DNA of 64,000 nucleotides from Solirubrobacterales bacterium (GCA_036257815.1 DATAEW010000034.1:1484-65483), one strand, 5' to 3'. Positions 10,818 to 14,398 are shown, counted from the first letter of the stretch. Translations and numbers: made by a program. Notes: generated by a model from the sequence alone, not told the origin.

Positions 10818-12263
10818 ATGGCTACCGAGACTGCCGCAGCGGTCGACCACAAGCTCCTCGTGGCGGGCGAGTGGACTGAGACCGGCGATTGGGACGAGGT
10901 GAGGAGTCCGTATGACGGCACCGTGGTCGGCCGGGTCGCCCAGGGCGACGCCGCGCTCGTCGACCGCGCGGTGCGCGCCGCCCACGAGGCCTTCGAGACC
11001 GCCGACTTCCCGCAGCACAGGCGGGCCGAAGTCCTCGACCGCGCCGCCCACCTGGCCAAGGAGCGGGTCGACGACCTCGCGCACTCGATCGCCGCCGAGG
11101 CCGGCAAGCCGCTGAAGACGGCAAGCGTCGAGGCGAGCCGCTGCGTCGACACGCTGACCTTCTCCGCCGTCGAGGCCCGCAAGCTGACCGGCGGCACGGT
11201 GCCGATGGATGCCGCGGCCGGGGGCGTCGGCAAGCTCGGGGTGATGCTGCGCGTCCCCTACGGCGTGGTCGGCGCGATCAGCCCCTTCAACTTCCCCCTC
11301 AACTTGGTCGCCCACAAGCTCGGGCCGGCGATCGCCGCCGGCAACGCGGTCGTCCTCAAGCCCGCCGGCCAGACGCCGATCACGGCGCTGAAGCTGGCCG
11401 AGGTCCTGCTCGAGGCGGGGCTGCCCGAGGGCTGGCTCTCGGTTGTCCCGGGGCCGGGCTCCTCGGTCGGCGACGCCCTGGTCTCCCACGAGCTGGTCGG
11501 GGCGATCACCTTCACCGGCTCGGCCAAGGTCGGCTGGGGCATCCGCTCCTCGGTCCCCCACAAGAAGGTCAACCTCGAGCTCGGCTCCAACGCGCCGCTC
11601 GTCGTCAACGAGGACGGCGACTGGGAGACGGCCGCCGACAAGGCCCAGGTCCACGCCTTCGCCCACGCCGGCCAGGTCTGCATCTCGATTCAGCGCATCC
11701 TCCTGCACGAAGCGATCGCCGAGCCGTTCACCGAGCGGCTCGTCGCCAACGTCGAGCAGCTCGAGGTTGGCGATCCGCTCGACCCCGAGACCGACGTCGG
11801 GCCGCTGATCACGCCGGGCGACCGCGACCGGGTCAGGGAGTGGATCGAGGAGGCGGTGTCGGCGGGCGCCGAGCTGTTGACCGGCGGCGAGCTGGTCGAC
11901 GAGGGCCGCTGCCTGGCGCCGACCCTGCTCGCCCATCCCGCCAAGGATTCCAAGGTCTGGTGCGAGGAGGTCTTCGGCCCGGTGGCGACGATCGACACCT
12001 TCTCCTCCTTCGAGGAGGGGCTGGCGATGGCCAACGATTCGAAGTTCGGCCTGCAGGCGGGCGTCTTCACCCGCGACCTCGGCCGCGCGATGCAGGCCGG
12101 CCGCACCCTGCAGTTCGGCGGCGTGATGGTCAACGAAGTCCCCGCCTTCCGCGCCGACCAGATGCCCTACGGCGGCGTCAAGGACTCCGGCAACACCCGC
12201 GAGGGCCCGGCCTTCGCGGTCCAGGAGCTGACCGAGGAGCGGTTCGTTACCTTCCAGGGCTGA
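10818..12263 (+). CDS. NAD(P)-dependent aldehyde dehydrogenase
   Basis: 481 aa; FTGS..VG, ELGSNAP (catalytic Glu) and the HAGQVCIS region (catalytic Cys). Confidence 0.9.
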   Translation: MATETAAAVDHKLLVAGEWTETGDWDEVRSPYDGTVVGRVAQGDAALVDRAVRAAHEAFETADFPQHRRAEVLDRAAHLAKERVDDLAHSIAAEAGKPLKTASVEASRCVDTLTFSAVEARKLTGGTVPMDAAAGGVGKLGVMLRVPYGVVGAISPFNFPLNLVAHKLGPAIAAGNAVVLKPAGQTPITALKLAEVLLEAGLPEGWLSVVPGPGSSVGDALVSHELVGAITFTGSAKVGWGIRSSVPHKKVNLELGSNAPLVVNEDGDWETAADKAQVHAFAHAGQVCISIQRILLHEAIAEPFTERLVANVEQLEVGDPLDPETDVGPLITPGDRDRVREWIEEAVSAGAELLTGGELVDEGRCLAPTLLAHPAKDSKVWCEEVFGPVATIDTFSSFEEGLAMANDSKFGLQAGVFTRDLGRAMQAGRTLQFGGVMVNEVPAFRADQMPYGGVKDSGNTREGPAFAVQELTEERFVTFQG

Positions 12264-14235
12264 GGGTCGCTCGGCTCGCCTGCTCCTGCCCGGAGTTGAT
12301 CCAGGCCAGCACGTCGGTCGTGGTCGTCCAGACCCAGAAGCCGAAGGAGACCAAGAGCTCCGCGGCCCAGATCTCGGGGTTGAACAGTTTCGCCACCACC
12401 TGGGTCGCCAGCCACGCCACTCCCCACCAGGTCGCCGTTTCGACGAGCAGGCGCAGCACGGCGAAGAGCCGACCCTCGCGGAACAGCTCGGTGACCACGC
12501 TGACGCACGAGACCACGGCGAGCGTCCTCCACGGTTCCCGTTTCACCCCATTCAAGATCGCGTCGATCGCGGCGCTCACCCTCGGACTCGACCGCAGCAG
12601 CGACCACACTCCGGTCGACATTTTCCCCTCCGAGAGCAGCGGCCCCAGCCCGATCGCCGCCACGAACCCGCCGGTCAGGTCCCAACCCACCTTCAGGACC
12701 TGCGGCGAAGGCAGCGACTCGTCGTCCACAGAATCGAGGCCGTATGCCCGAAGATGGTTCTCGGTTCCTGCCTGAGTGGGCTTGAGGAAGAGCGAGAACG
12801 CCGCCTGCGATCCCTGGGGATCGTTGCCGCTTGCGGTGATCGACCCGTCCATCGCGGCCGTGCACCACCCGGCGCCCGCGACCCCGAGGGCCACCGTCCC
12901 CAGCGTCGAGACGGCGGGCGTGAACACGGCCGGGGTCCCGCCGGCGATCACGTGGAGGGTCCCATCCGCCGCCGCGACCACGTTTCCCGCGCTGGTCGCC
13001 AGGGAGATCTGATCGGGATGGGTCAGCGACCAGCCGACGGTGAAGTCCGCCCCGTCCTGACGGGAGGTAGCGCTGGCCACCACCTTGCCGCTCGGGTCCA
13101 CGGCCCAGAAATTGCCGTACCCGGTGGCGAGGGCGATCTTGTCTTCATTCGCCATCAGCCCTCCGATGGAGACGAGCGCGGGAACGACGTCCGGTTCGGC
13201 GGCCGTGATATCGACGTTGCCGTTCTCCGGGACCACCAGGTCGAGCGGTTGCTGGGGCCCCCAGCTGTAGGTCAGGGAGAACGACTTCCGCACGCCGGGC
13301 CAGGTGTCGCTGAAGGTGGCGTCGTTCGCGATCAGGTGCAGTTCGTTGTTCGTGATCAGAGGCGCGACCTTGGCGGTGACGTCGCCGCGGCCGTAGGCGG
13401 CCTTGATCAGGTTGAGGGCGCGCGGATCGGGCGGTGGCGGTTGTTCGGAAAGGGCGTCGGGGTCGTAGTCCACCGAGAGGGTTTCGCCCTCGCTGACGAT
13501 CGCGAGCTGCGGCTGCTTGCCCTGATAGCGGTAGACGACGTCGAGCGACTTGCGCACGCCGACCCAGGTGTCGCCGAGGTTCGCGTCGGTCGCTTCGACC
13601 CTCAACGCTCGTCGGGAGACCGCGCTCTGGACCCTGGTCAGCACGTCGCCGATCCCCCAGGAGGCGCTGAGGATCTGGAGCGGAGGGCGGTACTTGAGGT
13701 TGTAGGTACCGCCCTCGGTGGTGATGTCGACGAACGGCACCTGACCTTTGTAAGCGGCCACGACGACGAGGGTCTTCACGTGTCCCGGGAACGGATCTCC
13801 GCCGAAGGTGGTGTTGTTGACCGGCACCGAGAGCGTCTGGGTGCTCTGGTCCACCATGCCCTGCACCTTCGAGGTCTCGTTCGCGGGTCCGTAGGTCGCG
13901 GCGAGGATCGAGAGGGTCGGGCCGGTCGTCTCCGCGGCTTCCGCTTCCAGCGACCCCTCCTGCTCCTCGGCGCCGATCGTCAGCGTTTGGTTCTCCGTCA
14001 CGGCGGCGACCTGCACGCTGCCGGTGCTGCCGTAGCGGTAGGCGACGGTGAGGACCTTCACGTAGCCGGGCCAGGTATCGCCGAACACCGCGTTGCTGGC
14101 CTGGACCGAGAGCGATTGCGGCGTCGTCGTGCGGTTGACCAATTCGATCACCTTGGAGGTGACTTTTCCCTGGCCGTATGCGGCTCCGATGATTTGCAGT
14201 TCGCTGGCGTCAGCGGGTTGATTCATCGCGCTCAC
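12247..14235 (-). CDS. Orphan multidomain protein: four tandem beta-domain repeats, a beta-rich middle region and a C-terminal hydrophobic region
   Basis: Four units of about 80-100 aa share the pattern L.I..A.YG...VT.KV......L.......FGD.WPG..K.L.V.Y.Y.G. No N-terminal signal peptide. The last ~150 aa contain hydrophobic/amphipathic helices. Alternative start ATG 14226. Confidence 0.7.
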   Translation of the reverse strand: MSAMNQPADASELQIIGAAYGQGKVTSKVIELVNRTTTPQSLSVQASNAVFGDTWPGYVKVLTVAYRYGSTGSVQVAAVTENQTLTIGAEEQEGSLEAEAAETTGPTLSILAATYGPANETSKVQGMVDQSTQTLSVPVNNTTFGGDPFPGHVKTLVVVAAYKGQVPFVDITTEGGTYNLKYRPPLQILSASWGIGDVLTRVQSAVSRRALRVEATDANLGDTWVGVRKSLDVVYRYQGKQPQLAIVSEGETLSVDYDPDALSEQPPPPDPRALNLIKAAYGRGDVTAKVAPLITNNELHLIANDATFSDTWPGVRKSFSLTYSWGPQQPLDLVVPENGNVDITAAEPDVVPALVSIGGLMANEDKIALATGYGNFWAVDPSGKVVASATSRQDGADFTVGWSLTHPDQISLATSAGNVVAAADGTLHVIAGGTPAVFTPAVSTLGTVALGVAGAGWCTAAMDGSITASGNDPQGSQAAFSLFLKPTQAGTENHLRAYGLDSVDDESLPSPQVLKVGWDLTGGFVAAIGLGPLLSEGKMSTGVWSLLRSSPRVSAAIDAILNGVKREPWRTLAVVSCVSVVTELFREGRLFAVLRLLVETATWWGVAWLATQVVAKLFNPEIWAAELLVSFGFWVWTTTTDVLAWINSGQEQASRATLSPGR

Positions 14236-14398
14236 CGCTCCATGCTCGAAGGACTGAAGTCCCGGAGGTATACCCGATGTTGGCCGAATATACTAGGTAA
14301 TTTAAAGTACACAACCTCCTTTCGACCGTGAGGGCGTTGGGCGACGCGAGGCTGCCGGCCGTGTGTTGTCCCGTGTTACTCGTGTGGCCGGTCGGCCA

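Follow-up and report, generated by a model that had tools for sequence, protein, structure and literature searches.

A 64,000-nucleotide stretch of DNA from a Solirubrobacterales bacterium (GCA_036257815.1 DATAEW010000034.1:1484-65483; hereafter the window, with positions counted from its first letter) carries on its minus strand a solitary gene (12247..14235) whose product combines four tandem beta domains of the DUF3395 and rhamnose-binding lectin (RBL) kind, a single fascin-type beta-trefoil and a C-terminal helical module, hereafter HEL. Neither the helical module nor the architecture as a whole has been described before, and the lectin-like and trefoil parts add new members to folds already known. 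The main value of the finding lies in this unassigned helical domain and in the link from DUF3395 to RBLs.

Architecture of the protein

The four repeats cover residues 11-91 (13963..14205; minus strand, as for all modules of the protein), 105-184 (13684..13923), 185-259 (13459..13683) and 272-349 (13189..13422). A four-unit pattern had been read by eye in a preliminary description of this DNA, and it is borne out by hidden Markov models (HMMs) built from the family alignment, one for each putative repeat. Indeed, each model recovers the other three repeats in the protein with independent E-values of 3e-12 to 6e-23. AlphaFold2 (AF2) folds every repeat into a small beta domain that also has two short helices, and does so with confidence, at a predicted local distance difference test (pLDDT) of ~90-97 (~95 for repeat 1). 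Repeat 2 diverges most among the four, and Massilia homologues carry a degenerate form of its motif. The resemblance to the DUF3395 domain, which had been proposed from the motif, proved right in kind: Pfam PF11875 (DnaJ-like_C11_C, formerly DUF3395) scores 22.9 bits on the protein (E 7.7e-5; best stretch at residues 197-246, in repeat 3), below its cutoff of 27.1, whereas homologous repeats of relatives pass the threshold (P0048, 54.7 bits; P0077, 37.7 bits; P0146, 28.5 bits).

A profile of the repeats (A4) also matches the L-rhamnose-binding lectins of the PDB (5h4s, E 1.6e-15; CSL3 2zx0, 1.8e-8; CSL2 9vwi, 5e-6). The lectin motif N-x-x-F-G-D-P-C-x-G-x-x-K-Y-L-x-V-x-Y aligns there with N-x-x-F-G-D-x-W-P-G-x-x-K-x-L-x-V-x-Y, the text sNxvFGDPCxGtyKYLxVxY of the lectin alignment reading sNavFGDtWpGvkKsLxVvY in the repeats. 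On the target alone, Pfam PF02140 remains below its cutoff (17.6 versus 31.4 bits). Judged from these sequence profiles, the repeats are homologous to SUEL/L-rhamnose-binding lectin domains, yet they are cysteine-free. The canonical RBL fold is held by four disulfides (PMC8350385); all eight of these cysteines are absent from the repeats, where the DPC of the lectins becomes D-x-W. The whole protein contains two cysteines, both outside the repeats; in the alignment of 35 family members, the first 10 carry between 0 and 5 each.

In the RBL domain of latrophilin, the sugar is contacted by Lys120, the amide of Gly117, Tyr63 of the YGR motif and Glu42, and among these Glu42 and Lys120 are indispensable (PMC2430599). 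Equivalents of the sugar-contacting residues are invariant or nearly so in the family, namely the lysines K60, K229 and K317 (invariant), the glycine, and the Tyr/Trp of the YG motif (Y20 and G21 in repeat 1). A near-invariant Glu-Gly pair (E81, E174, E249 and E337) stands in a hairpin after each repeat core, whereas the RBL glutamate precedes the core; the spacing from Glu-Gly to the next YG is 19 residues at the junction between repeats 2 and 3 versus 21 in latrophilin. Such a placement suggests a phase-shifted or permuted RBL unit. Sugar binding by the repeats is putative.

The beta-rich region that follows (residues ~354-487; 12775..13176) had been guessed to be a beta-trefoil of fascin-like type, a guess now upheld by both profile and fold. 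The family profile (A1) matches fascin chains at E ~5e-11 and, at 1e-4 to 1e-3, trefoils of designed proteins or of FGF, and a Foldseek search with the full model gives target-normalised template modelling (TM) scores of 0.76-0.78, with a root-mean-square deviation (rmsd) of 2.2-2.9 Å, to the Symfoil and FGF1/2 trefoils. The Pfam Fascin model (PF06268) reaches 12.3 bits on the target alone, below its cutoff of 23.1, whereas relatives pass it (P0140, 36.1 bits; P0172, 26.0 bits). Among the fascin and FGF matches, the full model also retrieved chain 2 of PDB 8i0w, which has 169 residues and belongs to the human spliceosome C complex (rmsd 12.4 Å, target-normalised TM 0.63, E 1.5e-5).

HEL (residues ~488-658; 12262..12774) comprises eight predicted helices and is rich in tryptophan (7.2% in the target, 4.4% on family average). 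Modelled alone by AF2 with 52 sequences, it reaches a pLDDT of 79.3, compared with 55-75 as part of the full model. Strongly hydrophobic residues make up 40% of the module and charged residues 13%, the latter being equally low in the rest of the protein. The most conserved and most hydrophobic helix (residues 511-534; 12634..12705) bears the motif W-D-L-T-G-G-x-F-x-A-x-G-L-G-P-L, in which G523, A527 and G531 stand in a small-xxx-small register (alignments A1, A2 and A3). Another invariant tryptophan is found near the C-terminus of HEL.

The preliminary description had spoken of hydrophobic or amphipathic C-terminal helices and of a tail-anchored or membrane-inserting topology. The helical character agrees with the AF2 model, but the term hydrophobic was overstated and a tail-anchored or constitutive transmembrane topology is unsupported, since no segment is of transmembrane grade on either the Kyte-Doolittle or the Hessa scale. 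Over 19 residues, the Kyte-Doolittle mean of the helical part peaks at helix 511-534, with 1.36 in the target and 1.45 on family average. No window of 19 or 21 residues has a negative Hessa-scale insertion energy in the 18 of the 35 aligned family members for which values were obtained; in these 18 members the best 19-mer sums lie between +1.4 and +4.8 kcal/mol, the glycophorin A control giving -2.9. Beta domains contain some of these best-scoring windows. A tail-anchored or polytopic membrane topology was rejected on hydrophobicity.

HEL resembles nothing in the collections that were searched. Foldseek with the dedicated HEL model returned nothing at E < 0.4 (best E 1.1 in the PDB and 0.5 in BFVD, TM <= 0.32), with Bcl-2/Mcl-1, ClyA and SmhB appearing only at E 3.8-6.2 and TM ~0.2 or less. 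The HEL profile gave only noise against PDB sequences (SecY, E 0.07; SPECT1, E 0.3), and no model of Pfam, NCBIfam, PADLOC or PHROGs matches the module. The outcome that would have spoken against the preliminary description, a well-characterised family spanning the whole protein, did not arise in profile searches: matches are sub-threshold in Pfam, noise in NCBIfam (ATP synthase c) and nil in PADLOC and PHROGs.

A divergent low-GC subgroup of the family (P0053, P0054, P0057, P0058 and P0067, among others) has two co-conserved cysteines, one just ahead of the first long helix and one at the very C-terminal end. This pair brackets HEL in about 10 of 14 divergent members and is missing in the high-GC members, the target included (alignment A3). 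It may form a disulfide or a metal clamp over the helical bundle.

Gene, family and genomic setting

The open reading frame (ORF) runs for 662 amino acids (aa) from a GTG at 14235 to a stop codon at 12247-12249. The true start is probably the in-frame ATG at 14226 (residue M4), which would give a product of 659 aa. This ATG is favoured because of a conserved GGAG ribosome-binding site (14238-14241, minus strand), which lies 2 nt from the GTG and 11 nt from the ATG, and because of public gene calls that begin at the same ATG (P0001, 659 aa and 100% identical; P0002, 651 aa). The order GGAG...GTGAGC...ATG is kept upstream of an 87%-identical orthologue (locus L001). The ratio of nonsynonymous to synonymous substitution rates (dN/dS) against this orthologue is 0.28 for the whole gene (repeats 0.26, trefoil 0.25, helical part 0.34), versus 0.14 for the flanking fumarase and 0.10 for the flanking aldehyde dehydrogenase in the same genome pair. 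The gene is real and under purifying selection, and its evolution is about three times as fast as that of the housekeeping genes next to it. An antisense ORF of 525 aa (12754..14331, plus strand) was rejected as a high-GC shadow, the family HMMs matching the minus-strand frame only; within the window, the models of the three modules (REP, TREF and HEL) match no ORF other than the target.

The gene had been called an orphan, a term that fails in the sense of lacking homologues and holds in the sense of lacking a conserved neighbour. A word-indexed search returned 41 homologues, 35 of them aligned over 96% or more of the query with identities of 38-87%, a HMMER scan of 1.84 billion representative proteins returned 497 at E <= 1e-3 (57 at E <= 1e-30), and a scan of GTDB species genomes, which do not include the window's own organism, gave 20 loci. 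Word-indexed searches with the C-terminal 316 aa or with a 28-sequence HEL alignment returned no matches and were uninformative, a failure that we blame on the word-index prefilter. The closest relatives of the target, whose window is 72% GC, are actinobacterial. In Actinomycetota, homologues occur in Trebonia, Amycolatopsis, Jatrophihabitans and another metagenome-assembled genome (MAG) of the phylum. Other carriers include Sphingomonadales (Allosphingosinicella among them), Xanthomonas prunicola, X. sp. Leaf131, X. euvesicatoria, Burkholderia and six named Massilia genomes, whose synteny is shared by a Burkholderiaceae MAG; Corallococcus exercitus represents the Myxococcota, and homologues from X. 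axonopodis pv. melhusii and Caballeronia were added by the word-indexed search. This patchy phyletic pattern implies a horizontal spread of the family. No paper on the family or on bacterial DUF3395 proteins was found; papers that mention DUF3395 deal mostly with eukaryotic J-proteins and, in one case, with a trypanosomal Msp1 complex, and bacteria figure in none of them.

Modularity was assessed with the family HMMs of the three modules on 184 proteins, in which leaders were called by a simple signal-peptide heuristic. Four repeats, trefoil and HEL are assembled as in the target in 53 of them. Of the 74 proteins with a trefoil or HEL, 65 have both, behind 0 to 4 repeats; this pair is also preceded by a DUF5648 domain in P0140 and by an unrelated N-terminus in P0145. 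Conversely, many proteins are arrays of repeats only (1 to 16), and the repeat is fused elsewhere to PLD (P0146) or to LamG_3 and Vps62 (P0136), or is embedded in LamG_3, Tectonin and DUF4214 proteins of 1,300-2,200 aa. The repeat half and the trefoil-HEL half are thus reused independently in other architectures. The P0140 locus adjoins a gene with a type IX secretion system sorting domain.

The absence of a signal peptide, already noticed in the target, extends to the whole set of HEL-carrying proteins (0 of 65), in which the first repeat begins at a median residue of 8; in the target it begins at about residue 11, without an N-terminal hydrophobic leader. In contrast, 20 of the 103 repeat-only proteins have signal-like leaders, and the repeat domain therefore also works outside cells. 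The secreted branch consists of arrays of 2-6 repeats alone with clear N-terminal signal peptides (P0109, P0118, P0143, P0153 and P0159, among others).

At its 3' end, the gene overlaps a convergent aldehyde dehydrogenase gene (10818..12263, plus strand) by 17 nt. The overlap, reported earlier, is real from the ORF coordinates, and the last nine residues of the target, which create it, are not conserved in the orthologue. On the other side, the class II fumarase gene fumC (14399..15712, minus strand) ends 163 nt upstream, and the intergenic region (14236..14398) presumably holds the gene's own promoter. It contains an AT-rich block (~14283-14314) that is partly conserved at the L001 locus; a sigma-70 consensus scan found no promoter upstream of the gene, and an Rfam scan of 11800-14800 found no RNA family. 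The inability to link any neighbour to the gene, stated from the window alone, holds across lineages: an all-against-all BLAST of the ORFs from 25 loci revealed only within-genus synteny and no neighbour conserved beyond the genus.

The loci of the homologues differ in content. In Xanthomonas, the copies lie ~2.4 kb beyond the clpV end of a type VI secretion system (T6SS) cluster (hcp, tagJ, tssE/F/G and clpV; L002 1-8633 and 10001-12028; L011; L025 8001-8438), and X. euvesicatoria ATCC 11633 retains only a remnant matching residues 513-654. T6SS genes are missing from the window, as they are from the loci of Massilia and actinobacteria that were examined. In X. sp. Leaf131, the homologue is followed by an extracytoplasmic function sigma factor and then by a Ser/Thr kinase with tetratricopeptide repeats (TPR) (L011 10074-13216), and a kinase with TPR also stands divergently upstream of a Massilia homologue (L003 6935-9687). 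A conserved kinase-TPR module was considered and rejected, the two sharing a generic kinase domain only (32% identity) and their small partner proteins being unrelated.

Some homologues have mobile or defence-type genes close by. The Corallococcus copy abuts an IS91-type transposase, one actinobacterial homologue lies within 1.5 kb of a restriction-modification pair made of a BglII endonuclease and an MT-A70 methylase, a PIN-domain gene adjoins another homologue, and an ice-binding-like/Big_3_5 protein follows the Trebonia copy (for these observations, L010 35-1045, L005 13386-14643, and L006 6702-7298 and 9958-11217). Finally, a 2.48-Mb contig of 41% GC (L026, ENA ERZ25068685) carries P0053 together with a second paralogue and a 271-aa ORF with a fascin domain (2360-3175, 8001-9947 and 17056-17947), in a region of unusually low coding density.

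The lower-GC patch noted by eye is a real dip, but a modest one that other genes of the window match. The target gene is 67.2% GC, with a GC content of 0.63 at first codon positions and 0.88 at third ones, versus 71.6-72.3% (0.94-0.97 at third positions) for the adjacent genes; much of the deficit lies at first positions, and part of it is due to amino-acid composition. The GC content of the target is equalled or undercut by genes at 1568-3199 and at 41-51 kb, the latter forming a run at 63-69% (41009-51070; for instance 42195-43517 at 64.1% and 49802-51070 at 63.1%). Given this dip of only ~4-5 points, the amino-acid effect, the similar genes of the window and the kept synteny, the inference from GC of a recent horizontal transfer into this lineage was rejected as weak. 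Elsewhere in the window, an ORF of 185 aa (52510-53067, minus strand) has directly upstream of it, at 53069-53219 (minus strand), a c-di-AMP riboswitch (Rfam RF00379; E 2.9e-13, 66.7 bits).

Possible functions

As a possible, still tentative reading, we favour a signal-less, lectin-targeted and membrane-active toxin that would be released by lysis or by a non-Sec route, by analogy with known antagonistic proteins. The protein would be made in the cytoplasm without a signal peptide and leave the producer through either of these exits. The lectin-like array, possibly together with the trefoil, would then bind a repeated surface ligand on another cell, most likely a glycan. HEL would be the effector, traveling as a soluble bundle before associating with or inserting into the target membrane, and its invariant Gly-rich helix (WDLTGGxFxAxGLGPL) might mediate helix-helix packing or oligomerization. 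No immunity gene would be needed because the producer would lack the receptor. Among lectin-like bacteriocins and signal-less anti-eukaryotic toxins, the producer is likewise without the receptor, so that an immunity gene is unneeded.

We infer ligand binding, export, membrane activity and toxicity from several lines of evidence. The repeat profile matches rhamnose-binding lectins with the sugar-contacting Lys, Gly and Tyr kept, and the gene behaves like an accessory, antagonism-type gene: its neighbours are unconserved, its distribution is patchy, X. euvesicatoria keeps a remnant, and an IS91-type transposase and the L026 paralogues accompany some copies. We also count in favour of a toxin the dN/dS of 0.28 versus 0.10-0.14 in the flanks, the T6SS adjacency in Xanthomonas, the cysteine pair of the divergent subgroup, the lack of a leader in all 65 HEL proteins, and the reuse of both the repeat and the trefoil-HEL pair. 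A bolder version, which we hold to be rather doubtful, is that the family constitutes a new class of signal-less, immunity-less and lectin-guided toxins of soil and plant bacteria, used as bacteriocins or anti-grazer weapons and killing by means of a helical membrane-active fold that is new and has a glycine-zipper-like helix at its core, and that the DUF3395 domain of mitochondrial DNAJC11 is a disulfide-free descendant of the RBL fold.

Several observations weigh against a toxin. HEL has neither fold nor sequence likeness to known pore-forming or membrane-active domains, and none of its segments reaches transmembrane-grade hydrophobicity. The glutamate that is essential in RBLs is not confidently placed, since the conserved Glu-Gly hairpin follows the repeat core. 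The neighbours in the window are housekeeping genes (YchF, SpoIID, aldehyde dehydrogenase, fumarase and a thiamine pyrophosphate enzyme), and the synteny of fumarase, target, aldehyde dehydrogenase and SpoIID is kept around the 87%-identical orthologue. The gene has no linked secretion signal, marker of a secretion system or cassette for lysis, and searches of PLSDB plasmids, INPHARED phages and IMG/VR returned no match. Besides, the T6SS adjacency is confined to Xanthomonas, and Actinomycetota are not known to have a T6SS.

Part of this evidence would suit the main rival, an intracellular scaffold or sensor, which we regard as unlikely. Its array would bind cytoplasmic proteins or sugar-bearing envelope precursors, and HEL would oligomerize or attach as a peripheral module to the membrane's inner face, in parallel with the membrane-associated eukaryotic DNAJC11, which has the same kind of domain. 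A protein that stays inside needs no leader, in line with all 65 HEL proteins, and the loss of all eight RBL cysteines suits folding in a reducing compartment. Without a transmembrane-grade helix, HEL could well be a soluble or peripheral bundle, and housekeeping neighbours with a synteny conserved between two related genomes point in the same direction. Moreover, a role in protein-protein association is no more than a suggestion for the DUF3395 domain of DNAJC11 (PMC4128653). However, a patchy distribution, the decay in X. euvesicatoria, clusters of paralogues and a faster evolution would be unusual for a housekeeping scaffold, and no partner gene is conserved. Relatives made of repeats behind a signal peptide indicate an extracellular use of the domain, and its fusion partners (Tectonin, LamG_3 and PLD) are of a type common in extracellular binding proteins or toxins.

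Two other readings use the same modules differently. The protein might be a non-toxic multivalent lectin or agglutinin that acts after release in aggregation, biofilm formation or host attachment, with HEL only multimerizing or anchoring it; four lectin-like domains plus a trefoil, the existence of secreted repeat-only relatives and the lack of toxin similarity in HEL are consistent with this. Adhesins, however, normally rely on recognizable export or cell-wall anchoring, neither of which applies to the target, and the way in which even distant members strictly conserve the Gly-rich hydrophobic helix suggests something beyond a generic coiled-coil multimerizer, so that we consider an agglutinin improbable. 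Even less probable in our opinion is a single-gene, self-acting defence effector of the abortive-infection kind, in which the array would sense an invader or a stress and HEL would disrupt the cell's own membrane. The layout of a sensor plus a helical effector in a solitary signal-less gene would fit, as would the patchy distribution and relatively fast evolution, the homologue situated at most 1.5 kb from a BglII-type enzyme and an MT-A70 methylase, and the one beside a PIN-domain gene. But PADLOC gives no match with either the whole protein or its C-terminal half, PHROGs gives none, and most contexts, the window included, are not defence islands; lectin-like and trefoil domains are not known as cytoplasmic phage sensors, and a transmembrane-grade helix is lacking.

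Comparison with known systems

With the SUEL/RBL domains (PF02140; SUL-I 5h4s, chum salmon CSL3 2zx0 and the latrophilin-1 RBL), the repeats share the loop-2 motif FGDPCxGxxKYLxVxY, the A-x-YG motif, the tandem arrangement and the sugar-contacting Lys, Gly and Tyr. They differ by the lack of the four disulfides, by a Trp in place of the Cys of DPC and by a Glu-bearing strand after the core; in addition, RBLs are secreted animal lectins, whereas the family described here consists of cytoplasmically made bacterial proteins. The C-terminal domain of DNAJC11 (PF11875) has the same sequence signature, is likewise poor in cysteines and resides in a reducing compartment. It differs in context: the target has four tandem copies rather than one and no J domain, a DnaJ domain matching neither the target nor any relative scanned with Pfam. 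Whatever the function of the bacterial proteins, the link between DUF3395 and RBLs yields a testable hypothesis for the C-terminal domain of human DNAJC11, namely that it may bind a ligand through the conserved G-x-x-K loop.

The trefoil agrees with fascin (PF06268) in sequence profile and predicted fold, but fascin contains four tandem trefoils and the target one, and nothing points to actin bundling. In fungal chimeras, fascin-like or ricin-type trefoils are joined to pore-forming modules, which are aerolysin-like in the case of the fascin-like domain (PMC13433851), a further functional precedent for a toxin; the position of this partner is taken in the target family by a helical module. The succession of a receptor-binding part and a helical bundle with one more hydrophobic helix recalls helical toxins (the pore-forming domain of colicins, Bcl-2, and ClyA/XaxAB-type proteins), for which signal-less synthesis is common. 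HEL differs from all of them in that it has no similarity in fold or sequence and no transmembrane-grade hairpin. As a module of ~170 aa that is conserved across distant lineages and has neither a Pfam model nor a solved structure, it is a clean target for structure determination.

Should the family turn out to be an ordinary cytoplasmic scaffold, its interest would be limited to domain annotation. If the toxin mechanism is true, it would provide a new effector fold and a new lectin-targeted antagonistic family common to Xanthomonas, Burkholderia/Caballeronia, Massilia, myxobacteria and actinobacteria, with bearings on bacterial competition, grazing resistance, and protein antibiotics or biocontrol. 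The closest functional parallel to such a toxin would be found in the lectin-like bacteriocins. These tandem lectins for the most part lack a signal sequence, and they have no immunity gene (PMC6240691). LlpA and the L-type pyocins, with their tandem domains of the monocot mannose-binding lectin (MMBL) kind, resemble the target family in being tandem lectins encoded by solitary genes, without an immunity gene and mostly without a leader (present in 0 of 65 HEL proteins). They also occur in soil and plant bacteria that include Xanthomonas and Burkholderia, and the ligands of LlpA are rhamnose-type. The fold differs, since LlpA is built on the B-lectin type (PF01453), which has no match in the target, and the target on the RBL/DUF3395 type. 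Finally, LlpA has no separate effector module, whereas the target family adds a trefoil and HEL to its lectin-like array.

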